The notes under the pieces: generated by a model | What the model was told of the DNA's origin: nothing | What the model saw: only the letters and a program-made list of their open reading frames with translations | Databases searched by the model: none | Part shown: one piece after another, positions 3,609 through 62,088 of the stretch | How positions within the stretch are numbered: the stretch's first letter is position 1 | How the letters are laid out: every line of letters starts with the position of its first letter | NCBI GenBank assembly: GCA_050633245.1 | Contig: JBOEGD010000011.1 | Location: 1 to 64,000, forward strand | From: Calditrichia bacterium | GTDB lineage: Bacteria; Calditrichota; Calditrichia; RBG-13-44-9; J075 | DNA: 64,000 nucleotides | Direction: 5' to 3' | Position numbers and translations under genes: made by a program

Positions 3609-3837
3609 AGGATTCCTCGATTCTTACATCCATATAGAAATTCTTGTATTTAGGTGATCAGACAGGGAGAGGAGGGTAAAAGAATAGACAAAACGGAGTT
3701 TTGTCAAAAAAGATAGTGAAGATATGAAATGATTGCTACGAAGTTTCCATCCAGGAATCAATGCGATTACCTCCCTGTAATCTCGCTGATCCTGCATCCC
3801 TGAATAAAGAAAGCAGTTATATAGGAATGTCGGGATG

Positions 3838-3865
3838 CGGGAAGTCACACTTTAGAGACTTCCCG
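3838..3865 (-). terminator. Possible terminator hairpin downstream of the lyase gene
   Basis: CGGGAAGTC-N10-GACTTCCCG inverted repeat ~40 nt after the stop at 3904; no clear U-tract. Confidence 0.4.
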
Positions 3866-3903
3866 ACTTAAAAGGTTTACTTGAATGCTAAAAACTGCAG
3901 GGA

Positions 3904-6285
3904 TTAGTTCATCTTAACGGAGAATGAAGTTCCTGTTGCGTAGAAAGAGAGGGTGTGGTCATTAGTCTTAACTGTCTCCAGGGGCTTGTTGTCGACTCTT
4001 ATTGCATATCTACCGTTTGCAAGACCGGTTATGACATGAAGTCTCTTGCCTGAATCTTTCAGGGTATACTTGATGTTTTTTACGAGTAAATTTTTGCGAT
4101 TGACAAAGGCTACCCGATCGCTGCCAATAACGACTCCAAAATGCGTAGAGAGTTTAATTAGTTCAGCAGGCTGCATTTTTACCAGCGTATTCGAATCGCC
4201 GATTTGGAAAAGAGTCAGGAACTCTGCCTTTGGTTTCTTCGACTTGTCATGCATCTCGAATCTATACTTCATTGCCCAGTATCCTGCCCAGTCGCTAACA
4301 ACCTTGCGCTTAGTCAGATCTTTCCCGGAAGCGTCGCGGAACCAGTAATCACCGGCTTCATCTCCCACCATGGAGTAGCTGACATTTTTAGCTGCAGGAT
4401 AGAGCCGCTTCAACAGCATAGCGCCATGAGTGTTGGCAAAGTTGGTTTGAAAACGCAGTGTCTTTTCTGAGCTTACCGTGAATTGACCTGTTGAAGGAGA
4501 ATTCCATTCACCGGCAAGCACTTCAGGCTTCTCATTTGCACTGAAAAGAAAGCGGCGCTGGTGAAGACTATCAGTTATATGAGAGTAATCGTATAGTAAG
4601 ACAAATTCATTATCCTTGTAGTTTGGCGATGCCGGATCGTGTAGATAAAGAACTTTGCGAATACCTTTGGCCAGAAAGTTGACGCGCTTGTACGACGGGG
4701 TATAGTCAAAACTGATAAAGTCGTATGTCCCATGATTGAACGATTGTGCGAGGATCAGGCCAAGTTCATTTTTTCCACCCGGCTTATTATCCTTATGATT
4801 CCAGGTTTCTGCAAAGTCATTACTTTTGCGCTTATAACCGTAGGTGTGATTCTTGCCATTATAAAATGCAGCAGAATTATGCCCTAAAACAGATTGACTG
4901 CCACCTTTGGGTAAATCAGAGTCCGATTTACTAATGCCGGCCTTGGTCGATAGCTCTCCATATTTGTGAAAGAACAAAGCTGTGGTGTTGTTTGTCCCAT
5001 GTCGAAATCCGTAAAAGCTGGGTGTCCAAAAGGTCAACTTGGTGGCCTGAGGTGTAAAGGAGGAGCGAATCGAGACATCGCCATAACCGAAGCGATAGGC
5101 GTGTTTGATGTTTGCATCTTCCGGTGAAATTGCCGCAACGTCTTTTATTCCAAAGATAAAGCTAAAGAAGAGGTCGTTTATTTCGGGATCGTTATAAGCC
5201 GGCATTTCAAGATCCGGAAATTTTGCATAGCTTTTGGAAAGAATCCAGCGGTAGAACCCCGCGAGTTTAGGATCCTTCTCTTTAATCATAGAAGTAGTGC
5301 AGAGAAACTGTTGTAGCGTCATGTTTTCATTAAACGTCGAAATCGAAACCGCACCATTCCTTTGCATAAAATGATTCTTATATTCGGGGCCTTGAATGGC
5401 CAGGGGATTGCTATAGAAAAACAGATATAGCGGAAACGTTTTGATGAAATTGAATTCTGCGTTCAAATTACGCTGCAAGGCTGGTGATAGCGCTGCTGCC
5501 ATCCAGGCAATTGAAAAAGATGCGCTCTTCATATAGCTGGCACCTTCAGACCAACCGGCCATTCCATCCGGATAGCCGGCATAGTTCTCTGCCAGCTTAA
5601 GAATGCGATCCAGCCAAATCGACTGCACATCGTCTACCATCTCATTTATCAGCTTATCTTTCCCGAGAAAAGTGTCACCATACAGCGCGATCCCGGTAAT
5701 ACCGGTTTGATAGCTATGTGCTATCATATTCATGCCGAGTTTTTGCCGGCCTCCTATTTTACCTTCTTTGTCGCGATTCGTGTAGGCAGTGATAATTTTG
5801 TCGGCAATTTCACGCTTTTGGTCTTCTGTCCAATCTCCATGAGACCAATCATATGCGACGCATAGCGACATCGTAAAGAACCCACCTTCACCTTTTGAAG
5901 AAAAGCCTGCAGAATGCACATCTTCTTTTCTTTCATCAATAGAGGCGGCGAGTTCAAAACTTTTGTCTGCATAGCGCTTCGAGCTACTACCAAACTGAAA
6001 AGACGTAAAATGGCCGCTGCGCTTCGCCAAAGAAAGAAAGGCGAAGTTTTTGGTATTGAATAGCTTCTGGTTTTCGTGTCGCGGGGTGCTATTGAGTTTA
6101 CCATCCATTAGCGTGATAAACTGCTGAAAGCGGATCGGTTCGTACTTCTTAACATATTGTGAGATGCTCTTTAGCTTTTCTGCATTCACAAATATGCGCG
6201 GTCTCTCCTTTGTTACGGTAAATTCATTTGCAAAGAGCGATGACATTGTAAAAATGAGGATACTAATTATTCGAAAGAATTGCAT
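3904..6285 (-). CDS. Exported heparinase II/III-like polysaccharide lyase
   Basis: Signal peptide, N-terminal 'RPRIF', helical half with 'VAYDW' and 'WSEGASY'. Beta half has 'H..NNTTALFFHKYGELSTKAG' and 'GHN', and the C-terminus has 'HVITGLANGRY', as in heparinase-II-like lyases. Substrate unknown. Confidence 0.62.
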   Translation of the reverse strand: MQFFRIISILIFTMSSLFANEFTVTKERPRIFVNAEKLKSISQYVKKYEPIRFQQFITLMDGKLNSTPRHENQKLFNTKNFAFLSLAKRSGHFTSFQFGSSSKRYADKSFELAASIDERKEDVHSAGFSSKGEGGFFTMSLCVAYDWSHGDWTEDQKREIADKIITAYTNRDKEGKIGGRQKLGMNMIAHSYQTGITGIALYGDTFLGKDKLINEMVDDVQSIWLDRILKLAENYAGYPDGMAGWSEGASYMKSASFSIAWMAAALSPALQRNLNAEFNFIKTFPLYLFFYSNPLAIQGPEYKNHFMQRNGAVSISTFNENMTLQQFLCTTSMIKEKDPKLAGFYRWILSKSYAKFPDLEMPAYNDPEINDLFFSFIFGIKDVAAISPEDANIKHAYRFGYGDVSIRSSFTPQATKLTFWTPSFYGFRHGTNNTTALFFHKYGELSTKAGISKSDSDLPKGGSQSVLGHNSAAFYNGKNHTYGYKRKSNDFAETWNHKDNKPGGKNELGLILAQSFNHGTYDFISFDYTPSYKRVNFLAKGIRKVLYLHDPASPNYKDNEFVLLYDYSHITDSLHQRRFLFSANEKPEVLAGEWNSPSTGQFTVSSEKTLRFQTNFANTHGAMLLKRLYPAAKNVSYSMVGDEAGDYWFRDASGKDLTKRKVVSDWAGYWAMKYRFEMHDKSKKPKAEFLTLFQIGDSNTLVKMQPAELIKLSTHFGVVIGSDRVAFVNRKNLLVKNIKYTLKDSGKRLHVITGLANGRYAIRVDNKPLETVKTNDHTLSFYATGTSFSVKMN

Positions 6286-6434
6286 TAAAATCTCTTCGTG
6301 TATTGCGGTGGTTAACTGCTACCAATTGATCCAATAATAATTGGATAGCAATCAAGCTACTAAAATCTCTAACAGATGAAAATTAACTGCATCACATAGC
6401 ATACAATCGTTCAAATATTCTGTTCCCCCCAAAA

Positions 6435-6463
6435 TTGACAATCTGCTGCAAAAATAGTAATCT
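6435..6463 (+). promoter_or_regulatory. Sigma70-type promoter for the FMO gene
   Basis: TTGACA-N17-TAATCT, 27 nt upstream of the TTG start; GAGG RBS. Confidence 0.5.
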
Positions 6464-6490
6464 ATGTATTGAAAATGTAACGAGGTAGAA

Positions 6491-7639
6491 TTGAAAATTT
6501 TAGAAACTTTGATTGTCGGTGCAGGACCCGCCGGGCTTGGTATGGCTGGAAGACTACGTAAGCGTGGTTTGGATTTTGAAATGGTTGAGGCGCGAGATAG
6601 CCTGGCCAGTTCATGGCAGGGGCACTACGATCGCCTGCATTTGCATACGGTTAAACAACTGTCACATTTACCGCATCTTGCTTTTCCGGAGGATTATCCA
6701 ACCTATGTCTCACGAGATCAGCTTATTATGTACATGAACAGCTATGCTGCTGAATTCCAGATAAACCCTCGATTCAATGCAACTGTGACAGCTATTGGTT
6801 CGACAGACTCTAAAGGGTTAAGAAAAGTATCTCTTGCAGGCCAAGACGATTTGAGTGCAAAGCATATCATTATCGCAACCGGCGTTAATCGTGAACCAAA
6901 TCGCCCGCAATGGCCAGGCGAAAAAGCATTCAGTGGCGCAATTTCCCATAGTAGAGATTATAAAAATCCCCAGCCATTTATCGGTAAACGCGTTTTGGTC
7001 ATAGGATTTGGCAATACCGGAGCCGAAATCGCGCTCGATTTATGTGAGAGTGGGGTAGAGGTTGCTATTTCTGTGCGCAGTCCGATTGCAATAATTCCAC
7101 GAGACGTATTTGGACGACCGGTTCAGTTGACGGCTAAAAAGTTGGCTAAGATTCCGCTGGGGATAGGGGATTGGCTGGGAACGCAGATTAGACGAATGAT
7201 CATTGGCGATTTGAGTAAGTTTGGCGTCCCTCTTTCAAAGGTACACCCGGCGGTTCAGCTAAGAGAAACCGGAAAGACGCCGGTTATTGACCTGGGAACG
7301 GCAGACAAGATAAAGTCTGGCGAAATTCTGGTTCACCCGGACGTTAGGTCTTTTTACGACTCGGGAATTGAATTCGCTGATGAGCTGCGTAAGGATTTCG
7401 ATGCTGTTATCCTTGCTACGGGCTATCGTCCGATGCTGGCAGACTTCATTCCAGATATTTCCCATAGCCTGGATGCAAATGGATATCCGGCATCCCCAAT
7501 TGGCAGCGGGGAGCATTCCGGCTTGTATTTTGTTGGCTTTGACGGTTACAAGCTTGGTGGTATCTTTGGTACGATAGGGGATGATTCCCTCGCAATTGTT
7601 GAGCAAATCGAAAAGAGCCTGAAGCCGATAAGCGCATAG
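6491..7639 (+). CDS. Flavin-containing monooxygenase (class B, YUCCA/CzcO-like)
   Basis: GAGPAG (FAD), 'HYDRLHLHT', FMO motif FSGAISHSRDYK, GFGNTG (NADPH), 'ATGY'. Confidence 0.9.
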   Translation: MKILETLIVGAGPAGLGMAGRLRKRGLDFEMVEARDSLASSWQGHYDRLHLHTVKQLSHLPHLAFPEDYPTYVSRDQLIMYMNSYAAEFQINPRFNATVTAIGSTDSKGLRKVSLAGQDDLSAKHIIIATGVNREPNRPQWPGEKAFSGAISHSRDYKNPQPFIGKRVLVIGFGNTGAEIALDLCESGVEVAISVRSPIAIIPRDVFGRPVQLTAKKLAKIPLGIGDWLGTQIRRMIIGDLSKFGVPLSKVHPAVQLRETGKTPVIDLGTADKIKSGEILVHPDVRSFYDSGIEFADELRKDFDAVILATGYRPMLADFIPDISHSLDANGYPASPIGSGEHSGLYFVGFDGYKLGGIFGTIGDDSLAIVEQIEKSLKPISA

Positions 7640-7707
7640 AGGAGCTGGGTTTGCCTGTTTACGGCAATTTCAATACCTTTCCATTCACGAACATTGGAGG
7701 ATGTGAC

Positions 7708-8046
7708 ATGGAAAATCTTGTATTTTGGGGAATCTTTTCATTTGGTTTTGTTATCGGATACCTGCTTTATTACGTGGCAAGACGAACGGCCACAATTAAT
7801 GCCGAATTTCTAACGACGGTTATTTCTGCTATCGGTGGGGCCACAGTTCTTGCATTCATTGGAGACAATGTCGATTTTATTGGCCCATACGGTATCGGGC
7901 TGTTGGCAGGATTCGCAACATACTTTTTTCTAACCCTCATTTTCTGGAAACTTAATACCTTCGATAAAGCCTCTGAAATAGGCTTACTGGGAAGCACGAA
8001 TGAGGGCTTTCGGGAGTTTCAGGCGTCGAAGGAAAAGAACAAATAA
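7708..8046 (+). CDS. Small three-TM membrane protein of unknown function
   Basis: ATG 7708 with GGAGG RBS; three Gly-rich hydrophobic segments; 9 nt from the next gene. Confidence 0.7.
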   Translation: MENLVFWGIFSFGFVIGYLLYYVARRTATINAEFLTTVISAIGGATVLAFIGDNVDFIGPYGIGLLAGFATYFFLTLIFWKLNTFDKASEIGLLGSTNEGFREFQASKEKNK

Positions 8047-51422: not shown

Positions 51423-51977
51423 CTATTTGACCAGCAACATTTTCTTCGTCTCAACGAAACCGTCGGCCTGTATCCGATAAAAATACAGACCGGCGGCGAG
51501 GCCTCTTGCTTCAAACTTAATATCATACTTACCTGCGGCCAACTTTTCATCTACCAGCGTGCCTACTTCCTGGCCTAACACGTTATAAATACTTAAACGT
51601 ACTGTTGCCGCTTTTGGAACAGTAAATACAATAGTCGTGCTTGGGTTGAACGGGTTCGGATAATTTTGTTTTAGCTCGAAGGTCTCCGGAGTCTGTAGAT
51701 CTTCTTCAATTCCTGTCATAATATCACGCGAAATTTGATACCAAAAACCATGTCCGAGGGAGAAGGTACTGTCGGCACTCTTGCTGATAAACGCCTGCCC
51801 GATGGTTCCGTCGAGGAAATTTGCGTTTTCGGATGTCAGTCCTTCACCGACCGAATCAGTTGCCTGGGTGTAGCCACTGCCGATTACGCTGCGATCAATC
51901 CTGAGCTGGGCGGTCAGGATTGACGGGAATATTACTATTATCAGGAGGGTTGCAATCGTTCTATTGAGGGCGGCCAT
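51423..51977 (-). CDS. Small exported protein: short beta-domain + T9SS type A CTD (copy A)
   Basis: Signal peptide, 'RSVIGSGY..GTIGQ..GHGFWY', CTD 'FELKQNYPNPFNPSTTI..IYNVLGQEV..GLYFYRI..TKKMLLVK'; TAATG overlap with the fibre gene. Confidence 0.9.
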   Translation of the reverse strand: MAALNRTIATLLIIVIFPSILTAQLRIDRSVIGSGYTQATDSVGEGLTSENANFLDGTIGQAFISKSADSTFSLGHGFWYQISRDIMTGIEEDLQTPETFELKQNYPNPFNPSTTIVFTVPKAATVRLSIYNVLGQEVGTLVDEKLAAGKYDIKFEARGLAAGLYFYRIQADGFVETKKMLLVK

Positions 51978-54604
51978 TATTTGCCCTCCAGTTTGTTCAG
52001 GCGTCGTTCAAGCGTTTCAATAGTAGACTGTTGCTCCTGTATTGCCTTTATCAGCACCGGAATGAGGGTCGAATAATTGATGCCCAGGGTTTCAAGCTCT
52101 ACCCTTTGTAACGTGTCGTTATCTTCTGAAGCCACATAGGCGTGTGTTTTTACCGCTTGCGGTACAACTTGTAATACCTCTTGAGCAATAAGTCCGAGCT
52201 TGGCCTCCTGGTCATAGCCGTTGCGCCACTGATAAGTGACCGGACGAAGACGAAGCACATCGTTCAATCCTGAATTTGCGTTTTGAATGTTGGTTTTCAA
52301 ACGCGCATCGGAGGTGTTTATAACGCCATTTGTTGCATAAACTGTTCGCCAACGAAATGTTGACGTACCCAAGTCGCGGTTGCCGTTAGTAAATGGTCTG
52401 AAGTGACTATTAATTGCCATTTGAAAACTTCCACCATCTTCAAATTCTTCAGCGGAACCAATGCGAACTTTCCCAGCCACATGGAGCGGAGCACTTGGAA
52501 ATGTAGTACCTATTCCGACGTTACCATTTTTTAATACCGTCATAGCATTGGAGCGCGTTGAAGCTCCTGTCCCATTTCCGATTTCGAATAGCGGATCGGT
52601 TGGTACCGAGGCAGTAGGGTTTCCTCCTCCGACGTTATAACTACCTACCGCAAGCGAAGCGAATGCATCCGCTTTTGTTTGTCTTCCCAAGGCGCCTGAA
52701 TAATCTCCGTTAGCTACAGTAGTATGACCGATGCTATAGCTAAACCTGCCCAGGGCATCTGAACTATACCCCAGAGCCGTTGTTGCAATTTCTTTTGCAT
52801 CGGTATTAAATCCCATTGCTGTTGAATATAAGCCGTCAGCATTTGTAAAGTATCCGCTGGCAAAAGCGTAGCTATTACCAGCCTCAGTGTCTCTTCCCAT
52901 TGCGGTTGAACCAACCCCTTGAGCTCGTGTATTATGTCCGGAGGCGAAAGAGTATTCACCAATGCTGTCCGGGTTCCAGTAGACGCTGGCAGCGCCTGTT
53001 GAAAGAGTACCAACGCGAAATGCATGTTTATGTGGGAGAAACATCAGCTTGTGTCCGTTGCTGAGAGTATCTAATCCAAAAAGCACCTTTTTGTCGTTGC
53101 CGACATGAAATGTAACTTTTGGAGAAATACCGACGCCAATACCAACCTCACCGTCACCGGTTATAGTCATGACATCGCCTCCGACGCCGTTCCAGAAATT
53201 TAATCGATCATTTCGGTTATTCGAGGCAATGTAGGCTGCGATAGACCAGTAGTTAGAGCCGTTGTTGTTCTTGAAATTTAAACGGGCGTAATCATTGCCG
53301 TTCTCGTGGAGCAGGACATGTGGATCGGAAAGCGAGCTGTTCTGAAAAATCTCCATTTTGGCATCAATTGATGTTGTTCCTATTCCCACATCGCCGTTAT
53401 TGTAATAGGTATCTACGCCGTTTAGTTGCCATGGAGATGTTCCCTCATTGTCGGTCGAGGGTATCCATGTAGCTCCATTGTATTTCAAAACTTGCCCGGC
53501 TGCCGGTGCCGAGGGAGAGATGTTTTTTCCCTGTATTCTATTCACAACCGGATTAGGATAGCTGCCCACGAGATCTCCACCAGCTCCCCCCGATGGAGGG
53601 AGAGAGGTGCCAGGCTTGATCTTACTTGCATCAACAGATTCATCGCGTAACTGCTCGGTGCCAACAGAAAAGCCCGCCATTTTGTTAAATGTAATAGAGG
53701 TGTCTGCGAGCTGAGTTGTGCCGATCCCTTTGTCGGCAACGCCGATTGAGACGGTTGGTCCGGTTGGGTTGTTAATCGCGAGTGTACCATCGCTATTCTG
53801 AATACCCTGAACACCGCTACCACCACCGGCACCGGCGTTAATGATAAGACTGTCGTTTCTGGTGGTAATAACTGCACCACCTTCACCGGTAACCGTGATA
53901 GCATCCTGTAGGTTGTTCAAACTTCGAATAACGGTATTGTTGGCAATCTTTGAAGTTGTAACTCCATTGTCTGCGAGCGAAAGGGTTACATCGCCACTAT
54001 TTCCACCACCGGCAAGTCCGTTGCCCGCCTGAACGGCTGTAATGTCTCCACCACCGCCTCCACTGGCAGCAATTGTTAGCTCGTTGCCGGTTTCAGTAAT
54101 CGTGATATTCGAGCCGGCGCTCAACTGCACGTCATCCGTCAAACCATTTAGACTACGCACCGCTACACTGTCGGCCAATTTTTGTGCTGTTATGGCGCTA
54201 TCACTTACGGTGATAGCGGTGAAGCTGTATGGACTGGTTGTTAGCTTGGTGCGCGGCGATAGTTCAGGATCCGACCCAAGTGCAATTCCAAGCCAATATT
54301 GTTTGTCGAAGCTGACAACGAGCGGATTTACACGACCCAATAGAACATTGACGATGCCACCTGCAACCTGAATCGTTTGTGTCTCCTGCCAAATGTTCGA
54401 CTTTGCAGGGGCACCTGAAATGGGCTCAAAGTCGTATAGTGTAAACGTGATGGAATAGTTGCCATCTACGACCGGATTCCCATTGGCATCGGTTATCAGT
54501 CCCTGATAACTCATAGTTTGCGGCACCTGTGAGAAACCTGCCATTGAATATAGTAGAATAAGTAGTGCTGAAATGAGGGTCGTTTGTAACCGTATATTAA
54601 ACAT
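51977..54604 (-). CDS. Signal-peptide trimeric fibre protein with YadA-head-like repeats and C-terminal S74 intramolecular chaperone (copy A)
   Basis: Start ATG 54604 (GGAGG). '[13 protein letters not shown]' N-domain, 'GIGTT' repeats and 14-aa 'STAMG..T.A' beta-roll repeats. S74: '[42 protein letters not shown]'. Confidence 0.88.
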
Positions 54605-54684
54605 CTCTTCCTCCTGTGAGAGTTTTGTGCGAAAGTACAGAATTGATATTATGGTCAATGTAGGATTTGAATAGGCAAATGTAA

Positions 54685-54725
54685 ATCGCACAAGGGTGGT
54701 ATTTTGGCTCACATGAATATGTGAT
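54685..54725 (-). promoter_or_regulatory. Tandem 7-4-7 inverted-repeat operator (NarL/LuxR-type RR site) upstream of fibre copy A
   Basis: ATCGCAC-AAGG-GTGGTAT (54685-54702) and CTCACAT-GAAT-ATGTGAT (54708-54725), 23 bp apart, ~80 nt upstream of ATG 54604. Confidence 0.6.
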
Positions 54726-54806
54726 AAGCTGGCAGGTTGGTCTCAAATCCGGGAGAGTGTAGTGCTGCTGAGAAAAACTGATCTTCTTGACAGTGCGATT
54801 GCACTA

Positions 54807-57800
54807 TTAAATTGACGGCCCTTCAAATATTACTGTAAAGCCATCTTTGTTTCTAAACGTTATTTTGCCGCTTAGTCTTTCGGCACGCAGATTCATGTTG
54901 CGTAAGCCATGCCCGGAGCGTCGCGTGCTATTGCCATCACCTATGCCGTTGTCGCTGATGCACATGGTGAAAGATTCCGAAGAGTTTACGAGTGAAATAT
55001 TTACTTTATTGGCTTCGGCATATTTGGCAATATTAGAAATCGCTTCTTTGCTAATCAGATATAAGTTCTGTCTTAAATTTATATCAACAGACTTTTGCAG
55101 GTTCAGGCCTTCTATTTGATAAGACAGTTCAATGTTCTGTTTACTAAACATCAAATCAACAAAATCTTTAATATGATCTACCAAATCTCCAAGGGTGTCG
55201 TTGCGTGAATCAATTGACCAAACAACGTCGCTTAACATTCGGGTTGCTTCACGTCCCATAATGCCGATTTTATCAACTCTCTCGGGAATTTTGTCTGCCT
55301 GTAATCCACTTTTGAGAAGTTCAGACTGCATAACAATTGCGTTTAATGTTCCACCAATATCATCATGTAAATCACTGGCAATGCGAACGCGAAGTCGTTC
55401 GAGAGCAAGTAAATTCATGACGCGATTTCGGTAGATAAGCAGAGGAATAACGACTGCGGTTAATACGACAATAAGCCTAAACCACCAGGTTTCCCAATAC
55501 GGCGGTTCAATTGTTATTTTCAGTGATTTTCCATTATCGCTCCAGCTTCGGGCATTGTTGGATGTTCTAACCCGAAAGATGTATTCACCTGGATCAAGGT
55601 TTGTATAGGTTGCAAAACGCCGCTTTCCTGCCGGAATCCATGTATCATCAAAACCCTCCATTTTATAGGCATATTGGTTTTGAGACGGTGAGGTGTAGTC
55701 TAACCCGGCAAATTCGAACGAGAACACTTTGTGTTGATAGGATAATGAAAGCTCATCTAGTTGCGATATCGCTTTCTTTAATGGTGTCGGTTTGCTATTG
55801 CTGGATACTGCCACCGAGCGATTAAACAGCAGAAAGTCTGTGATAACAACCGGCGGTTCATAGGAGCTATCGGAGAGGCTGTCAGGGTGGAAATAACAGA
55901 GACCTGCGGGCCCACCAAAATAGAAGATTCCGTCTCCTCCGATAAAGGCAGTATTCTGATTGAATTCATTGCCAGGCAGGCCATCTTGCAATTCAAAATT
56001 TCTGAAGGTTTCAGTTTTACCGCTATTGAATAGAGAAATACCATGATTCGTGCTAATCCAGAGTTGACCGCGTTCATCGACGAGTGATGCCTGCACTACG
56101 TCATTGGGAAGTCCGTCTTCTTGATAGTAACGATGGAACTTTTTTGTTTTCTTGTCAAAACGATTTAAACCATTGAGAGTACCAACCCATATCGAATTTT
56201 TAGATGTTTCATTAATTGATATGGTCAGGTTATCGCTGATAGAGTTGGAATCGTCAGGATGATGCGTGAACTGCGTAAAGCGTTCACTAATAGGGTTGAA
56301 GCTACTTAGCCCACCGGATGTTGCCAGCCAGAAAATGCCTGCGTTATCGATATGAATCTTTCTAACGATGCCATCTCCAATGCTGGCACTGTCTGCCTCA
56401 TCCGGAACATAGTGTTTGAACGTTTTGTCAACGAGATTAAAACGACTAAGCCCACCTCCGCGAGATCCTACCCAGATATACCCGTTGTACTCATTGAGTG
56501 ATAACACATCATTGTCGTTCAGACCAGCAGGTGTTTGGGGATCATATTGAAATTTTTTAAATGTACCCTTTTGCCGATCAAACAAGTTTAAGCCGCCACC
56601 ATAAGTGCCTACCCAAAAATTATCTTGGGAATCTTCAAGGATTGCATAAACCCAGTTGTGGCTTAATGACGTGGGATCTTTTGGGTCGTGGAGATAGGCT
56701 TTAACATTTTCCCTGTTGCGATCGATTCGGTTCAATCCGTTCTGGGTACCAACCCAAAGCGTTCCGTTTTTATCTTCAAAAATTGATGAGATAAAATTGC
56801 TGCTTAACCTAATTTTTCCACCCACGCCGCTGTTGTAATGCTTAAACCTGTTGGCCTGAAAATTCAGCTTGTTGAGGCCTGCCTTGTGGGTTCCAATCCA
56901 GAGGTTTCCGGTGCGATCTTCCGCTAAAGATATGACCTTGTCATCATTAATGCTGAAGGGGTTTGCCGAACTGTTGCGATAGCTTACAAAGGAGTTTGTT
57001 TGCGGTAGTTTAAGATTCAGACCTCCACCAAATGTTGCAGCCCACAAGCGCTGACGACTGTCCAGAAATATCGAATAGATTTTATCGCTACTTAAGCTGT
57101 TCGCTTTGTTTGGGCTGTGGCGAAGTTGAACAAATTCCCTGGTTGTGGTATTAAATTTTGCTATTCCGGCCTGTCTGGTGCTTATCCATAGCGCGTTTGC
57201 GTCCTTTGGATCCTGCAGAATTGCAGAGATTGAGCTGTTGGGCATAGTGCCGGGGTCGGTAATATCGTTTTCATAGCGAATAAAGACTGCGCGCGTGCTA
57301 TCGTCAGCAATTGCGATGAGCTCTTTTAATAAGTTCAGTCCGTGGACATTCGTGGCGTCTCTTTTGCCTGATACCCCCAGCCACAGATTACCATGAGCAT
57401 CCTCAAGTATGGCGTTGATGATATTGCCACCAATGCTTGTTGTGTCTTCCACGCTATACTGAAAAGCTGTGGCTTCTCCGGTCTTTCGATCAAACAGGTT
57501 TAGTCCGCCTTTAACAGTGCCCACCCAAAATCGATCCTGGCTGTCATGGTAAATGGAAACAGCGGAATTGTCTGAGAGACCCGGAATTTGCCCGGCGCCA
57601 TTTCCGTAGCAGCGAAAGTTCTCGTTGTCGCGGTCAAAACGATTTAGACCACCCTGCCAGGAGCCAATCCAGAGGTCACCATCACGATCTTCAATAATCG
57701 TTGTAATGTAGTTGCTGCCTATACTGAGAGTGTCTTTTTGAGAGGCTTTGAAAACCTTAAACTGATAGCCATCGTAGCGATTCAATCCACCAATGGTTCC

Positions 57801-57983
57801 AAACCAAAGATAGCCTTGCTTATCTTGATAGATTGTAACAACCGAATTTTCAGAAAGACCATCGGTATTCGTTAGATGTTCGAAGCGATATTCCTGCGGT
57901 AATAACCCCGTGGTTGCTAAAAGGAGAAGGCCAATCATCCATCGAATAATAAAGCGAGTTTTTAGAGTGGGGGAGTATGCCAT
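54807..57983 (-). CDS. Sensor histidine kinase: Reg_prop beta-propellers + Y_Y_Y + TM + HisKA_3 + HATPase
   Basis: Repeated 'I.ED..G.LWIGT..GLN.FD', 'YAYKMEGFD..W..YTNLDPGEY.F', 'PPYWETWWF', 'RIASDLHDDIG', 'EAISNIAKY', 'DNGIG', 'GHGLRNM..RA'. Confidence 0.93.
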   Translation of the reverse strand: MAYSPTLKTRFIIRWMIGLLLLATTGLLPQEYRFEHLTNTDGLSENSVVTIYQDKQGYLWFGTIGGLNRYDGYQFKVFKASQKDTLSIGSNYITTIIEDRDGDLWIGSWQGGLNRFDRDNENFRCYGNGAGQIPGLSDNSAVSIYHDSQDRFWVGTVKGGLNLFDRKTGEATAFQYSVEDTTSIGGNIINAILEDAHGNLWLGVSGKRDATNVHGLNLLKELIAIADDSTRAVFIRYENDITDPGTMPNSSISAILQDPKDANALWISTRQAGIAKFNTTTREFVQLRHSPNKANSLSSDKIYSIFLDSRQRLWAATFGGGLNLKLPQTNSFVSYRNSSANPFSINDDKVISLAEDRTGNLWIGTHKAGLNKLNFQANRFKHYNSGVGGKIRLSSNFISSIFEDKNGTLWVGTQNGLNRIDRNRENVKAYLHDPKDPTSLSHNWVYAILEDSQDNFWVGTYGGGLNLFDRQKGTFKKFQYDPQTPAGLNDNDVLSLNEYNGYIWVGSRGGGLSRFNLVDKTFKHYVPDEADSASIGDGIVRKIHIDNAGIFWLATSGGLSSFNPISERFTQFTHHPDDSNSISDNLTISINETSKNSIWVGTLNGLNRFDKKTKKFHRYYQEDGLPNDVVQASLVDERGQLWISTNHGISLFNSGKTETFRNFELQDGLPGNEFNQNTAFIGGDGIFYFGGPAGLCYFHPDSLSDSSYEPPVVITDFLLFNRSVAVSSNSKPTPLKKAISQLDELSLSYQHKVFSFEFAGLDYTSPSQNQYAYKMEGFDDTWIPAGKRRFATYTNLDPGEYIFRVRTSNNARSWSDNGKSLKITIEPPYWETWWFRLIVVLTAVVIPLLIYRNRVMNLLALERLRVRIASDLHDDIGGTLNAIVMQSELLKSGLQADKIPERVDKIGIMGREATRMLSDVVWSIDSRNDTLGDLVDHIKDFVDLMFSKQNIELSYQIEGLNLQKSVDINLRQNLYLISKEAISNIAKYAEANKVNISLVNSSESFTMCISDNGIGDGNSTRRSGHGLRNMNLRAERLSGKITFRNKDGFTVIFEGPSI

Positions 57984-58044
57984 GATTGCTATCTTATTTT
58001 ACTTGTTTTGCGCGGACATCTTACAAATTTGCTTGTGAATTTCA

Positions 58045-58072
58045 TTCACCGTTCACCGTTCACCGTTCACCG
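58045..58072. repeat. (TTCACCG)x4 heptamer repeat abutting the response-regulator stop
   Basis: Direct reading; directly adjacent to the TAA at 58073-58075. Confidence 0.9.
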
Positions 58073-58723
58073 TTATATATCCCCACGAATGTACTTTGCA
58101 ACGGCGTCAACTTTATTGTGCACCTGTAGCTTGCGATAAATATTTTTGATGTGCGTGCGAACCGTGTCGACTGAGATGCCAAGATGAGCAGCAATTAACT
58201 TGTAGCTTTTCCCGTCCACCAATGCGCGAAGAATATCCTGCTCACGTTCAGTAAGTGCCGTCTTGTCTTCCTTTTTTCCGAGAAATTGAGACATTTCAGG
58301 CCGTTGATTAAAAAAAGTGAAAACCTGCCTGGCAATATGTGGCGACATGGGTGATCCGCCTTTAAAAAGTAGTTCAATAGCAGCCTTTATCTCGGAAAGC
58401 GGCGTATCTTTAAGTAAATAGCCGGATGCACCGGCACAAAGCGCGTCGAAAATGCGCCTGTGATCATTGTGAACGGTAATCATGATGATGTCAATTAGCG
58501 GGAATTTCTGCTTTATCAAGCGTGCGCCCTGTAGCCCGGACATACCAGGCAGACCGATATCCAGAAGTAAAACTTGCGGGGGCAACGACTCTTCAAGGGC
58601 GCTTAACAGGGCTTCCATCGAGCCGAAGGCCATTTTGCAGATGAAATTTTCCTGAGCATCCAAGTAAGTCTGGAGGCTTTCACGTATGTCAGGATGATCT
58701 TCAACAATTGCAATATTTATCAT
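58073..58723 (-). CDS. NarL/LuxR-family response regulator
   Basis: 'IVEDH', 'LLDIGLPGMSG', 'GASGYLLK'; HTH 'LTEREQDIL..LVDGKSYK.IA..LGIS.DTVRTHIKNIYRKLQV'; start 58723. Confidence 0.93.
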   Translation of the reverse strand: MINIAIVEDHPDIRESLQTYLDAQENFICKMAFGSMEALLSALEESLPPQVLLLDIGLPGMSGLQGARLIKQKFPLIDIIMITVHNDHRRIFDALCAGASGYLLKDTPLSEIKAAIELLFKGGSPMSPHIARQVFTFFNQRPEMSQFLGKKEDKTALTEREQDILRALVDGKSYKLIAAHLGISVDTVRTHIKNIYRKLQVHNKVDAVAKYIRGDI

Positions 58724-58779
58724 GCTGTAAAATAAGTCACTTATGCTACAATTCAAACTAATTTAAGCCGTTGCATCGG

Positions 58780-59307
58780 CTATTTCACAAGCAACATCTT
58801 TCGTGTTTCAACAAATCGATCTGCTTGAATACGGTAAAAATACAGACCAGCAGCAAGGCCTCTTGCTTCGAACCGAACCTCATATGTACCCGCAGACAAA
58901 TTTTCATCGACCAACGTACCGACTTCCTGTCCCAGAACGTTGTAAATCGTCAATTGCACCTCGGCTGCCTGGGGCAGGCTGAAAAGGATAGTTGTTGAGG
59001 GATTGAATGGGTTCGGATAGTTCTGTTTTAGCTCAAATTCCGCTGGTAATAAATTCTGATCCTCGATGCCGGTAACAATATCACGTGAAATCTGATACCA
59101 GTAGCCCTGAGCTACAGTTGTAGCGCTGTCTGAAACTGTGAAGACTGCCGTCTGTCCCAGCGTGCCTCTCAATAGAGTGGACGAGTCGTTTGACTGCGTA
59201 TAGCCTGAACCGACTACACTGTTTCGAAGCACTGTCTGGCTATTTCCAATAGATGACATTAGCAAGCAGCCGAAGACGAAATGAATGAGGATCCTAAATT
59301 GCATCAC
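58780..59307 (-). CDS. Small exported protein: short beta-domain + T9SS type A CTD (copy B)
   Basis: Paralog of 51423-51977 ('SVVGSGYTQ..GTLGQ..QGYWYQISRDI.TGIE..FELKQNYPNPFNPSTTI'); TGATG overlap with fibre copy B. Confidence 0.9.
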   Translation of the reverse strand: MMQFRILIHFVFGCLLMSSIGNSQTVLRNSVVGSGYTQSNDSSTLLRGTLGQTAVFTVSDSATTVAQGYWYQISRDIVTGIEDQNLLPAEFELKQNYPNPFNPSTTILFSLPQAAEVQLTIYNVLGQEVGTLVDENLSAGTYEVRFEARGLAAGLYFYRIQADRFVETRKMLLVK

Positions 59308-61925
59308 TTGCCCTCCACTTTACGCAGGCGAGCTTCCAGAGCTTCTATTTTTGATTGCTGTTCCTGAATAGCCTTAATAAGTACCGGCACCAGTGTAGAA
59401 TAGTTCATGCCAAGCCGCTCAAGCTCAACGCGGTTAACCGTAGGGTTATTCTCTTCATCTTCAGATAATTTATAATCATGCGTTTTTACAGCCTGTGGGA
59501 CTACGGGCAGAACTTCCTGGGCGATGAGACCGAGTCTCTCTGAGCGGTCGTATCCATCGCGCCACTGGTAGGTTACCGGTCTTAACTGCATCACAGCATT
59601 CAGGCCAAGCCCAGCGTTTTGGATATTCGTTTTAAGACGGGCATCTGAGGTTTGAATTGTACCATTGGTAGCATAGACATCGTCCCATCGAAACGAGGAG
59701 GTGCCAAGATCGAAAATATTGTCTGACTCTGATCGAATATCGCCACGTGTCGCAATCTCATTTACCCCTCCATCTTCCACAAACTCGGCACTTCCGAAAC
59801 GGATTCGTCCATTAACCGTAAGCGGCTCTGTTGGGAACGTATTTCCTATACCGACATTTCCGTTTTTTAAAATGGTCATTGCATTTGCACGATTGGTAGA
59901 GCTACTTCCATTTCCGATTTCAAACAAAGGATCGGAATCTATCCAACTTGTAGAGGATCCTGCTCCTACATTGTAACGTCCTATTGCAAGAGAATTATAT
60001 GAATTGGCCTCAGTATTATTACCAAATGCGGTTGAGTAAATTGCATTTGCATTCGAAAAGTAACCGATACTTACGCTATAGTTCTCCTCTGCATCCGAAC
60101 TGTATCCCATAGCTGTGCTGCCTGTTCCACGTGCATCTGTATTGAAACCCATAGCCGTTGAGTAGAGACCGTCAGAGTTGCTAAAGAAGCCGCTCGCAAA
60201 GGCATAGCTGTTTCCCGCTTCAGTATCACGCCCCATAGCTGTAGCACCATAACCCTGCGCACGTGTATTCAAGCCGGATGCAAAGGAGTACAAGCCAATG
60301 CTGTCTGAGTTCCAGTAGGTACTGGCTGCACCGGTTGCAACGGTTCCAACTCTGAAGGCGTGTTTATGGGGTAGGAACATCAGTTTGTCTCCGGCGCCGA
60401 GAGTGTCGGCACCAAATAATACCCTATTGCCGTTTCCAACATGAAACTTAACCTTTGGTGAGATACCAACATCGATGCCGACTTCACCGTCTCCGGTGAT
60501 CGTCATTACGTCTCCGGAAGTGCCGTTCCAGAAATTAAGCCGATCATTCCGAACATTACTGGCAATATAAGCAGCAATGGTCCAGTAGTTGCTTCCATTG
60601 TTGTTTTGCATGCGAAGGCGGGCGTAGTCATTTCCATTTTCATGCAGTTGAAGATGTGGATCTGAGAGTGAGCTGTTGTGAAAAATTTCCAGCTTTGAAT
60701 TTGGAGTTGTCGTTCCGACTCCAATGTCGCCATTGTTATAGTAAATGTTGCTACCGCTTTGTGACCATAAGTTTGTACCCGCATTATCAGTATCAGGCGT
60801 CCATGCAGTGCCGTTAAATTTTAAGACCTGACCCGTTACCGGAGCTGTTTGTTCTATCGACCTGCCCTGAAGCGCAGAAACTATGGGGGTTGGGTAACTA
60901 CCGGAAAGATCTCCGGCGGCCGAGCCGGAAGGTGGCAGGGAGGTGCCGGGCTGGATTTTGGCAGCAGTAACAGATTCGTCCGCCAGCTGTTCTGTTCCAA
61001 CGGAAAAGCTGGTGAGCTTTGCTTGGGTGATGGACGTATCGGCCAGTTGTAATGTTCCTATTCCACCAGCTGAGACGTTTACGGTAACTGTTGGTCCGTT
61101 TGGATTAGTGATGTTCAAAGTGTTATTCGTATTCTGAATTCCCTGTACGCCACTACCACCACCTGCACCCGCATTGATGATCAGACTATCGTTGCGGGTC
61201 ATAACTGTTGCTCCGCCTTCGGCAGCTATTATTACATTGTCATTCAATGTGTTCAGACTTCGAACAACGGTGTTGTCGGAAATCTTTTGTGAAGTTACGC
61301 CATCATCCGCAATGCTTAAGGTTACGTCACCTATTGTCCCGCCGCCGGATAGTCCATCGGTTGCCTGTACGGAAGTAATATCGCCAGTTCCAACACCCAC
61401 AGCATTAATCGTAAGGGTGTTCCCGGATTCAGAAATGCTGATATTATTTCCCGCAGCCAGTTGTATGGCTTCCGTTTTGCCGTTCAGACTTCTAACTGCA
61501 ATTCCGGCAGCAAGCTTTTCAGAAGTAATACTGCTATCTACAACGGAGTTTGAAATAAAGCTATAAGGTGTTGTTGTAAGATCTGTTCTTGGCGTTAACT
61601 CAGGATCATTTCCAATTTTTATGCCAAGAAAATAGGGAATCTCGAAGTCGGCGGTGATTGGCACAACGGTGCCTAACAAGGCATTGACAAGGCCTGCTGT
61701 AATGTTGACAGTTTGATTCTCCTGCCAAACCAAGTTGCCGTTTTCTTTTGCGTCGTATAAAGCAAATGTAAGATTGTAATTACCATCTGTTATTGGATTG
61801 CCATCGGGGTCGGTTAGCAACCCTTGATAACTGATCGTTTGTGGAGTTTGTGCGACCAGACTTGAGTTAAGCACCGCCGAAATAAAAACAATAAAGACTA
61901 TGCAGTTAAGAACAAAAATACGCAT
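59304..61925 (-). CDS. Signal-peptide trimeric fibre protein with YadA-head-like repeats and S74 chaperone (copy B)
   Basis: Start ATG 61925 (GGAGG); colinear paralog of 51977-54604, e.g. shared '[10 protein letters not shown]', '[12 protein letters not shown]', '[18 protein letters not shown]', '[13 protein letters not shown]'. Confidence 0.88.
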   Translation of the reverse strand: MRIFVLNCIVFIVFISAVLNSSLVAQTPQTISYQGLLTDPDGNPITDGNYNLTFALYDAKENGNLVWQENQTVNITAGLVNALLGTVVPITADFEIPYFLGIKIGNDPELTPRTDLTTTPYSFISNSVVDSSITSEKLAAGIAVRSLNGKTEAIQLAAGNNISISESGNTLTINAVGVGTGDITSVQATDGLSGGGTIGDVTLSIADDGVTSQKISDNTVVRSLNTLNDNVIIAAEGGATVMTRNDSLIINAGAGGGSGVQGIQNTNNTLNITNPNGPTVTVNVSAGGIGTLQLADTSITQAKLTSFSVGTEQLADESVTAAKIQPGTSLPPSGSAAGDLSGSYPTPIVSALQGRSIEQTAPVTGQVLKFNGTAWTPDTDNAGTNLWSQSGSNIYYNNGDIGVGTTTPNSKLEIFHNSSLSDPHLQLHENGNDYARLRMQNNNGSNYWTIAAYIASNVRNDRLNFWNGTSGDVMTITGDGEVGIDVGISPKVKFHVGNGNRVLFGADTLGAGDKLMFLPHKHAFRVGTVATGAASTYWNSDSIGLYSFASGLNTRAQGYGATAMGRDTEAGNSYAFASGFFSNSDGLYSTAMGFNTDARGTGSTAMGYSSDAEENYSVSIGYFSNANAIYSTAFGNNTEANSYNSLAIGRYNVGAGSSTSWIDSDPLFEIGNGSSSTNRANAMTILKNGNVGIGNTFPTEPLTVNGRIRFGSAEFVEDGGVNEIATRGDIRSESDNIFDLGTSSFRWDDVYATNGTIQTSDARLKTNIQNAGLGLNAVMQLRPVTYQWRDGYDRSERLGLIAQEVLPVVPQAVKTHDYKLSEDEENNPTVNRVELERLGMNYSTLVPVLIKAIQEQQSKIEALEARLRKVEGK

Positions 61926-62088
61926 TGTACCCTCCGCCAACTTTGTATAAAATGTTATTGTTCAATTGGAAGTGTTATTAGGTAGCATATCAAAAAAGAG
62001 TGAGGGCGACAACACATTCTCTCAATTATTATCGGGAAGTACTGTCGCTGGTATAGATACGGGTCTAATGACGAAGGGAATGGGACCT

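Follow-up and report, generated by a model that had tools for sequence, protein, structure and literature searches.

The locus described here raises the question of how a large fibre without a T9SS sorting domain could reach the cell surface, and why a small gene whose product carries such a domain lies directly behind the fibre gene. By definition, a T9SS cargo protein bears its own sorting domain. The window, i.e., the whole stretch of DNA that was analysed (64,000 nucleotides), contains a module of one fibre gene and one partner gene twice, and ORF analysis placed both copies on the minus strand. The conserved ~55-aa segment of the partner between the signal peptide and the linker and sorting domain is named PSEG here. 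The features of the two modules and the genes between them are as follows.

59304..61925, minus strand: fibre gene 2, 873 aa, with signal peptide, N-domain, repeat stalk, YadA-head-like repeats, and S74 chaperone
61554..61853, minus strand: N-domain core of fibre 2, ~100 aa lying past the signal peptide, a MAT-N-like beta sandwich
59484..59648, minus strand: Peptidase_S74 core of fibre 2 (Pfam)
58780..59304, minus strand: partner gene 2, 174 aa, with signal peptide, PSEG, linker, and T9SS type A sorting domain
59071..59238, minus strand: PSEG of partner 2, ~56 aa, mature N-terminus (alignments and profile search)
58783..59037, minus strand: T9SS type A sorting domain of partner 2 (PF18962, TIGR04183)
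58073..58756, minus strand: LuxR-family response regulator (Response_reg and GerE), 23 nt downstream of partner gene 2
54807..57983, minus strand: sensor histidine kinase with Reg_prop, Y_Y_Y, HisKA_3, and HATPase_c, between the two modules
51977..54604, minus strand: fibre gene 1, 875 aa, architecture as in fibre 2
about 54221-54532, minus strand: N-domain of fibre 1
52148-52312, minus strand: S74 core of fibre 1 (Pfam)
51423..51977, minus strand: partner gene 1, 184 aa, with signal peptide, PSEG, and sorting domain
about 51711-51908, minus strand: PSEG of partner 1
51426-51680, minus strand: sorting domain of partner 1

The ORF of fibre 2 spans 59304-61940 from a TTG, the likely start being the ATG at 61925; that of fibre 1 spans 51977-54712 from a GTG, with the ATG at 54604 as its likely start. 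The lengths of fibre 2 (873 aa) and partner 2 (174 aa) are those of the database proteins P0153 and P0001, respectively. An earlier note on this DNA had reported TAATG and TGATG overlaps in the two modules, and both were found when the junctions were read: the ATG of partner 2 shares one base with the TGA of fibre 2 (...AAG TGA TGC..., TGATG), and the ATG of partner 1 shares one base with the TAA of fibre 1 (...AAA TAA TGG..., TAATG). GGAGG is located ~10 nt 5' of the partner start at both junctions. These one-base stop/start overlaps imply coupled translation.

When comparing the two copies, 65% identity (575/881) can be noted for the fibres and 61% (104/171) for the partners. Identity is lowest in the N-domain (55%) and in PSEG (43%); it is 68% in the remainder of the fibre and 82% in the sorting domain. 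A prophage origin of the locus is ruled out by the neighbouring genes, which encode NYN/OST-HTH, geranylgeranyl reductase, fatty-acid desaturase, PAP2, and PEP carboxykinase-like proteins.

Peptidase_S74 (PF13884) was identified by Pfam in both fibres, with E-values of 2e-14 and 4e-14 (53-54 bits, cut-off 22), together with YadA_head (42 and 32 bits, cut-off 25). The S-D-x-x-x-K motif is located at Ser760 in fibre 2 and at Ser765 in fibre 1; cleavage at Ser760 would free the C-terminal 114 aa of fibre 2. Neither a T9SS sorting domain nor an autotransporter anchor was matched in either fibre by Pfam and NCBIfam, no lipobox was seen on inspection by eye only, and the full-length YadA-type model of NCBIfam (NF033478) gave 24 bits at a cut-off of 750. 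The fibre content described earlier (signal, N-domain, YadA-head-like repeats, and S74, with no barrel or CTD) is in agreement with both Pfam and NCBIfam.

The MAT fibres of Bdellovibrio bacteriovorus consist of a signal peptide, a beta-rich N-domain of ~130 aa, a long trimeric stalk, and mosaic tips with or without S74, according to Caulton et al. 2024 (PMC10769870), who presume that the N-domain attaches to a surface element yet to be identified. The fibres of the window have the same domain order: alignments indicated a signal peptide followed by a conserved beta-rich N-domain of ~130 aa, and the C-terminal Pfam content of the N-domain relatives (S74, DUF5907, or none) is likewise that of mosaic tips. 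S74 is present in three N-domain fibres of this genome and absent from three, and it was found in 18 of the 89 foreign N-domain ORFs. The S-D-x-x-x-K motif in S74 tips and the multiple and tandem gene copies are further similarities to MAT fibres. The difference is that the fibres described here belong to a T9SS-bearing lineage and are accompanied by a dedicated partner gene with PSEG and a sorting domain, whereas no partner of the fibres is named in the text drawn from PMC10769870.

The NF053851 (Bdello_MAT_N) model gave 29.8-30.8 bits (E 2e-7 to 4.5e-7) with the N-domain of fibre 2 and 17.6 bits with that of fibre 1, neither of which reaches the curated cut-off of 60 bits. This model was matched by 93 of the 95 N-domains at E<=0.01, below the cut-off, with a best E of 1.1e-13. 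Because the scores lie under the cut-off, the N-domains are relatives of Bdello_MAT_N outside that subfamily. The AlphaFold2 model of the N-domain contains five strands, with a pLDDT of >90 for residues 1-90. A Foldseek search of the PDB with this model gave no match at E<=0.001, and with VIA-align the highest Z was 7.2, for the mirolase T9SS sorting domain (8qb1_A), and the C-terminal domain of PorU reached 6.2, both being at the background level for this tool.

Both partners contain Por_Secre_tail (PF18962) with an E-value of ~4e-10 (3.5e-10 in partner 2) and the T9SS type A sorting domain TIGR04183 (43.8 and 44.9 bits, cut-off 23), and a catalytic domain was not found in them by Pfam; the previous description of the partner as a signal, a ~60-aa segment, and a T9SS-type CTD, with no catalytic domain, is borne out by Pfam and NCBIfam. 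Alignments of PSEG revealed the motifs G-x-G-G, G-T-x-G-Q, and G-F/Y-W-Y. In the AlphaFold2 model of partner 2, an N-terminal helix and the sorting-domain sandwich (pLDDT 98) can be distinguished; PSEG folded alone had a pLDDT of 48-59 despite its sequence conservation. When proteins were searched by words, the PSEG region yielded 2 matches only, this method being too insensitive, and a profile search yielded 7147 matches (cluster representatives). Among the best 150 of these 7147 matches, 114 carry a sorting domain, and the other fusions are with dockerin, dockerin and cohesin, TIG, BACON, PKD, and Kelch. Judging by these fusions, PSEG is a portable N-terminal module. In one metagenome locus (L100), a PSEG-dockerin protein without a sorting domain is likewise encoded directly after an S74 ORF.

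The genome encodes PorU (NF033707, 789.5 bits, cut-off 420) and SprA (TIGR04189, 754.9 bits, cut-off 200), which indicates that the organism is T9SS-bearing; a sorting domain was found in 262 of its ORFs. Six N-domain genes are located in five loci of this genome, and a gene encoding a signal peptide, PSEG, and a sorting domain adjoins all five. The PSEG profile matches only five of the 32312 ORFs, each beside an N-domain gene. In foreign loci, a partner was detected at 46 of the 60 evaluable fibre runs (41 directly downstream and 5 upstream only; 14 had none); these loci are labelled Ignavibacteriota, Calditrichota, KSB1, Bacteroidota, Latescibacterota, Eisenbacteria, and others (FCB-group phyla). 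Of 61 genomes of the phylum, 17 contain both the N-domain and PSEG, 3 contain the N-domain without PSEG, 0 contain PSEG without the N-domain, and 41 contain neither. With the genome under study left out, 20 of the 22 PSEG matches in the phylum sample are located <=5.1 kb from an N-domain match on the same strand. Of the 18 metagenome loci seeded with PSEG, 12 likewise adjoin an ORF with the N-domain or S74. Chance adjacency is ruled out by the PSEG matches being only beside N-domain genes and by the co-occurrence in the phylum sample.

The pairing of fibre and partner is therefore real and widespread. Adjacency across T9SS-bearing genomes had been proposed as a check, and the N-domain and PSEG do co-occur; the supposed link between the fibre N-domain and the partner segment was recovered in 5/5 loci of this genome, 46/60 foreign loci, and 17/17 genomes with PSEG. 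The N-domain can exist without a PSEG partner, as follows from the partnerless fibre runs, from the N-domain matches of the phylum sample, of which 11 out of 33 have no PSEG within 5.1 kb, and from the 3 of 20 N-domain genomes that are free of PSEG, one of which is a single-contig genome rated 98% complete.

The partner could be related to the S74 tip or to the N-domain. According to the earlier note, the loss of the C-terminus from a fibre with S74 leaves it unable to retain a CTD of its own. This rationale fails, since the partner tracks the N-domain and not S74 (in foreign loci, it is present at 10 of the 13 S74 fibres and at 36 of the 47 non-S74 fibres) and since proteins with S74 and a sorting domain exist: in 8 of the 124 S74 proteins, S74 is followed immediately by a T9SS sorting domain, and all eight lack the N-domain. 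The partner follows the N-domain and is independent of the S74 tip; the core of the idea, a partner acting in trans via the N-domain, survives. In a set of 166 fibre-type proteins, 58 have the N-domain and S74, 42 the N-domain only, 58 S74 only, 8 S74 with a sorting domain, and 0 the N-domain with a sorting domain. No N-domain protein has a sorting domain of its own among the foreign ORFs (0/89), the database relatives (0/51), or the fibre-type set (0/100), i.e., the two are mutually exclusive.

In 51 pairs, N-domain distances correlated more closely with PSEG distances (r 0.52) than with distances of the partner's sorting domain (r 0.25), and the partial r of the N-domain and PSEG was 0.49, reached by 0 of 2000 permutations; these correlations are inflated by shared ancestry, and the control may be weakened by sorting domains homogenised within genomes. 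The complex prediction for three N-domains and three PSEG gave a score of 0.04 against a mark of 0.32, in a run without controls.

We lean slightly towards the reading that PSEG docks on the base of the fibre and provides it in trans with T9SS export and/or anchoring. The fibre would then be a MAT-like homotrimeric surface fibre, and the partner would be its dedicated mini-adaptor. Sec would bring both proteins into the periplasm, and the C-terminal S74 chaperone would trimerise the fibre and then cleave itself off at Ser760/765. PSEG, disordered alone, may dock on the N-terminal beta-sandwich base of the fibre, and the sorting domain would lead the complex of fibre and adaptor to the T9SS translocon, through which they would be exported together. 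After cleavage by PorU, the remaining peptide of ~75 residues would tether the fibre base to the surface, perhaps to lipopolysaccharide, with the variable fibre tip pointing outward. One partner is common to tandem runs of 2-3 fibres; this accords with a partner that follows the N-domain and not the tip, but it speaks against the reading in that a strict 1:1 complex is hard to reconcile with it. A more far-reaching proposal is offered tentatively: a folded trimeric fibre that lacks a sorting domain might be exported and anchored by the T9SS through piggy-back on an adaptor with a passenger of 55 residues, and the N-domain and PSEG might form a widespread modular docking system of the FCB group, which would be a candidate for the sort of surface element recognised by MAT-type N-domains.

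If true, a large cargo family that borrows its export signal from a mini-partner widens the T9SS cargo rule, and the prediction of T9SS secretomes would change, given the 7147 cluster representatives found by the PSEG profile. The pairing would also give the MAT-fibre field a testable answer to the printed question of what the conserved N-domain binds, and the small pair of peptide and domain could serve for protein display on Bacteroidota surfaces. A literature search covering sources outside subscription journals revealed no published description of this pairing of fibre and mini-adaptor and no earlier case in which cargo lacking a sorting domain is exported by the T9SS by means of a sorting-domain partner. 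In Tat hitchhiker export, a subject of work referenced in PMC9251779, signal-less subunits co-translocate with a signal-bearing partner. The proposed route is similar in that a signal-less folded protein would leave bound to a signal-bearing partner, and it differs in the machine and in the membrane; hitchhiker export via the T9SS is not reported in the literature searched.

T9SS type A cargo is anchored to anionic LPS by PorU/PorZ, according to PMC8545088 and PMC9143113. The partner resembles such cargo in having a bona fide TIGR04183 domain and a signal peptide, in a genome that encodes PorU and SprA. Unlike type A cargo, it has a passenger that spans just ~55-65 residues and contains neither an enzyme nor an adhesin domain, and the presumed real passenger is a large fibre without a sorting domain. 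The two-gene logic, with a neighbouring gene for cargo-specific anchorage, is that of type B cargo and its adjacent PorP/SprF-like partner, as outlined in PMC9143113; however, in that system it is the cargo that bears the sorting domain, with an outer-membrane protein as its partner, whereas here the sorting domain is found on the partner and is missing from the cargo. The S74 domain with its Ser-Lys motif is shared with phage fibres and spikes such as the K1F endosialidase (3GW6) and the T5 fibre (4UW8), which are cited in PMC10769870. Unlike phage fibres, the fibres described here have a Sec signal peptide and housekeeping neighbours, and no PHROG match was found in their N-terminal ~400 aa. 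YadA trimeric autotransporter adhesins have similar YadA_head repeats and presumably the same trimeric fibre geometry, but no C-terminal anchor barrel was found here and the polarity is reversed, the base being N-terminal. As in the cohesin-dockerin system, a small modular docking element would join passengers to anchors, and PSEG is fused to both cohesin and dockerin; it differs in having no sequence relation to either and in that its binding partner is a presumed one.

The same co-occurrence and co-variation data would fit if the T9SS exported the partner alone, PSEG at the surface served as a receptor, and the fibre crossed the outer membrane separately and docked later. This would demand no new capability of the T9SS, and it would account both for one partner serving several tandem fibres and for PSEG being joined to dockerin and cohesin, which are surface-assembly modules. 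Nevertheless, we consider it unlikely: an alternative export device was not found in the loci examined, nor an autotransporter barrel in the fibres by Pfam and NCBIfam, and the strict exclusion between the N-domain and an own sorting domain suggests that the partner replaces the export signal and not the anchor alone. To our knowledge, Bdellovibrio has no T9SS. A related N-domain works in that organism, which counts against PSEG-mediated export. The earlier note held that an N-domain common in genomes lacking T9SS would tell against it, and this is partly the case: 93/95 N-domains match the Bdellovibrio model, whereas the five genomes with partnerless loci that were tested are rich in sorting domains, with 41 to >150 matches each. 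Bdellovibrio MAT fibres are surface-exposed according to PMC10769870, as expected if the fibre crosses the membrane separately.

It is quite improbable that the link between the two genes is functional and non-physical, with the partner being a co-regulated secreted peptide, e.g., a signal to the adjacent two-component system. A comparable case is PorA of P. gingivalis, a small sorting-domain protein that influences PorXY signalling. PSEG is unstructured alone, and Reg_prop/Y_Y_Y-type sensors are located beside 3 of the 5 loci of this genome and in 9 of the 73 foreign loci, but the other 64 foreign loci have no sensor, and a peptide signal leaves unexplained the exclusion between the N-domain and the sorting domain, the co-variation of the N-domain with PSEG, and the dockerin and cohesin fusions.

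Small chaperone genes commonly lie next downstream of phage fibre genes, and many PHROG tail-fibre families were matched by the last 300 aa of the fibres, in the region of residues ~550-873; still, an assembly factor, i.e., a counterpart of a phage tail-fibre chaperone or tip protein on the distal fibre with a sorting domain that merely exports the partner, is the least probable of the explanations. The partners had 0 hits among PHROG families at E<=0.001, are kept across unrelated C-termini (S74, DUF5907, or none) and always with the same N-domain, and contain a PSEG that co-varies with this N-domain; S74 fibres, moreover, bring their own chaperone.

The two modules of the window and the regulatory genes between them are located on the minus strand:

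59304-61925 (-), fibre 2, 873 aa counted from the likely ATG
58780-59304 (-), partner 2, 174 aa
58073-58756 (-), LuxR-type response regulator
54807-57983 (-), Reg_prop/Y_Y_Y/HisKA_3 sensor kinase
51977-54604 (-), fibre 1, 875 aa
51423-51977 (-), partner 1, 184 aa

Fibre and partner genes are coupled: the fibre stop codon and the partner ATG share one base, giving TGATG and TAATG, and each overlap is preceded by a GGAGG. Housekeeping genes flank the modules. The domain search revealed YadA_head repeats and a Peptidase_S74 domain (S74, a C-terminal self-cleaving chaperone) in both fibres; the T9SS type A sorting domain is the only domain match in both partners. The S74 motif S-D-x-x-x-K is found at Ser760 and Ser765 of the two fibres, and the predicted self-cleavage would free 114 and 111 residues. 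The gene pairs, overlaps and domain content described in the earlier note were borne out at every testable point by ORFs, junctions and domain searches; its claim that the fibre has no lipobox agrees with inspection by eye only. The copies are 65% identical in their fibres and 61% in their partners. Their most diverged parts are PSEG, a conserved ~55-aa segment of the partner (43% identity), and the N-domain, which follows the fibre signal peptide (55%), and the less diverged parts are the sorting domain (82%) and the rest of the fibre (68%).

The genome containing the window (6.35 Mb, 97% complete; the window belongs to contig C11) encodes PorU and SprA. According to the local profile, 262 of its ORFs contain a sorting domain, an unusually large T9SS secretome for 6.35 Mb. 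Two PorU-like genes exceed the cut-off in the whole genome (789 and 539 bits), and the C-terminal end of the SprA match, C7:94607-100681 (-), extends beyond a single TAG codon (model positions 2070-2316). The N-domain profile found six genes in five loci, two of them in the window; the others are as follows:

G000 C9:11000-20500 (L014), fibre of 1967 aa, with S74
contig C2, fibre of 519 aa, no S74
G000 C31:16000-24500 (L016), two fibres in tandem at L016 positions 2535-6418 and 6455-7837, no S74

In all five loci, the fibres are followed by a gene encoding a signal peptide, PSEG and a sorting domain. The PSEG profile matched 5 of 32312 ORFs, exactly the five partners (next best E-value 0.064), and the iterated profile returned the identical five. 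The partners of the three loci outside the window are 172, 604 and 462 aa in length; the C31 partner (461-462 aa) has Kelch repeats between PSEG and the sorting domain. The 604-aa C9 partner has a ~430-aa middle region without a Pfam match, and the 1967-aa fibre preceding it has many internal repeats, with 19 weak N-profile stretches. The C31 tandem fibres, with frames of 671 and 660 aa, both end in the same conserved domain, which matches no Pfam family.

A search with the N-domain pattern yielded 191 relatives and returned 73 loci, the source genomes being labelled Ignavibacteriota, Calditrichota, KSB1, Bacteroidota, Latescibacterota, Eisenbacteria, Zixibacteria and others. Two loci were removed as redundant, L037 for being identical to L036 and L058 for overlapping L044; of the 77 fibre runs that remained, 60 were evaluable, with the 3' end complete and followed by 600 nt or more. 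A partner lies directly downstream in 41 of these 60 runs and only upstream in five; 14 have no adjacent partner. Five genomes with partnerless loci were examined: all contain sorting-domain matches (41 to more than 150), and four of them have PSEG genes at other sites, where the partner often precedes the fibre. Reciprocally, in a sample of 61 genomes of the phylum, counting this one, 17 have both PSEG and the N-domain, three only the N-domain, none only PSEG, and 41 neither; these counts overstate independence because the genomes are related. Of 22 PSEG matches in this sample outside this genome, 20 have an N-domain match within 5.1 kb on the same strand, one is at a contig edge and one is alone, and 11 of the 33 N-domain matches have no nearby PSEG. 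In metagenomes, 12 of 18 PSEG-seeded loci adjoin an N-domain or S74 ORF, the other six being mostly short contigs or contig ends. The adjacency that the earlier note proposed to check with profiles across genomes is found in 46 of 60 runs, and all 17 genomes with PSEG have the N-domain.

Partner presence is independent of S74: a partner accompanies 10 of the 13 fibres that have S74 and 36 of the 47 that lack it. Where two or three fibre genes form a run, they differ in their C-termini but have one partner in common. The architectures of 166 fibre-type proteins from two database searches are distributed as follows:

N-domain and S74, 58 proteins
N-domain only, 42 proteins
S74 only, 58 proteins
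S74 and sorting domain, no N-domain, 8 proteins
N-domain and sorting domain, 0 proteins

The eight proteins that combine S74 with an in-cis sorting domain show that an S74 fibre can bear one of its own, contrary to the earlier claim that it cannot keep it. The N-domain and the in-cis sorting domain look like alternatives to each other, and their mutual exclusion supports the core idea of that note, a partner supplying export and anchoring in trans. Seven database proteins (P0241, P0286, P0295, P0298, P0302, P0305 and P0318) are short fibres of 482-628 aa with the sorting domain directly after S74, and the N-terminus of such short fibres is different. Many S74 fibres carry the precomputed Pfam annotation PF26696, which does not coincide with the N-domain.

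The N-domain is related in sequence to that of the mosaic adhesive trimer (MAT) fibres of Bdellovibrio bacteriovorus: 93 of 95 N-domain sequences matched NF053851 (Bdello_MAT_N) at E ≤ 0.01 (best E 1.1e-13); the two window fibres, at 29.8-30.8 and 17.6 bits, stay below the cut-off of 60 bits. The MAT study describes 21 fibres, of which 13 have S74 and 8 lack it; common to all of them is an N-domain of ~130 aa, which "would presumably tightly bind" a surface element not yet identified (Caulton et al. 2024, PMC10769870). The AlphaFold2 model of the N-domain is a five-strand sandwich (pLDDT > 90 over residues 1-90) with no significant match among PDB structures. The best structural matches of the model (window 61434-61853, -) include the C-terminal domains of mirolase (8qb1_A, Z 7.2) and PorU (6za2_B, Z 6.2), both T9SS sorting-type sandwiches with Z scores at the tool's stated background level.

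PSEG occupies the mature N-terminus of the partner, where the residue after the signal peptide is almost always Gln (alignment A6); a Gln follows the predicted cleavage site in both the fibres and the partners of the window (alignments A5 and A6). This residue fits the pyroglutamate 'Q-rule' reported for exported proteins of Bacteroidota. Despite its conservation, PSEG alone was modelled by AlphaFold2 with a pLDDT of 48-59, the neighbouring sorting domain reaching 98. At E ≤ 0.001, the PSEG profile matched 7147 cluster representatives; a threshold of E ≤ 1e-10 leaves 688. Among the best 150 of the 7147, the local profile found a sorting domain in 114, and none has an N-domain or S74; of the other 36, which lack a sorting domain, 18 have fewer than 160 aa and may thus be incomplete. 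PSEG is modular, its Pfam fusion partners being dockerin alone, dockerin with cohesin and a sorting domain, TIG, BACON, PKD and Ig-like arrays. At locus L100, a PSEG-dockerin protein without a sorting domain directly follows an S74 ORF. The dockerin/cohesin fusions hint at scaffolds on the surface, similar to cellulosomes, as possible carriers of fibres. Such fusions occur in P0003, P0055, P0059, P0073, P0014, P0075, P0078 and P0087, and P0003 has three tandem copies of PSEG.

In 51 cognate fibre/partner pairs, N-domain distances correlate with those of PSEG (r 0.52), and lower values were obtained when either was compared with the sorting domain of the partner concerned (N-domain, r 0.25; PSEG, r 0.24). 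When the sorting domain is controlled for, the N-domain/PSEG correlation is 0.49 (partial r), a value that none of 2000 permutations reached. Together with the divergence of the window copies, this fits co-evolving contact surfaces, but is no proof of contact, because shared ancestry and sorting-domain homogenisation could contribute.

We propose, with moderate confidence, that the partner is an adaptor: PSEG would dock to the N-terminal base of the fibre, the partner's sorting domain would provide T9SS targeting, and PorU processing would leave a short peptide tethering the fibre. PSEG-fibre binding, taken on its own, is likely; export of the two proteins as a complex has somewhat less than an even chance, and lipopolysaccharide anchoring is a little more doubtful still. 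A role of the partner as an anchor-only receptor is unlikely. That it is a signalling peptide connected with the adjacent sensors is highly improbable, and a phage-style assembly factor is marginally less probable again; PHROG tail-fibre families matched only fibre residues ~550-873 and neither partner. The fibres themselves belong to an already known kind; the adaptor principle would be a new variation on the handling of T9SS cargo. Our literature search found neither a T9SS passenger lacking a sorting domain and carried by a sorting-domain partner nor a description of PSEG, and excerpts of reviews on folded-protein translocation and on predation do not link MAT-type fibres to the T9SS.

In this genome, three of the five fibre loci have Reg_prop/Y_Y_Y two-component sensors beside them in the same orientation (window 54807-58756, -; G000 C9:7712-11932, -; G000 C31:12413-16660, +), that of the window being accompanied by a LuxR-type regulator. 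Judging from these sensors, fibre expression may be regulated. The genome has 25 ORFs of this sensor type; of the 73 foreign loci, 9 have similar ORFs upstream, six being strong matches.
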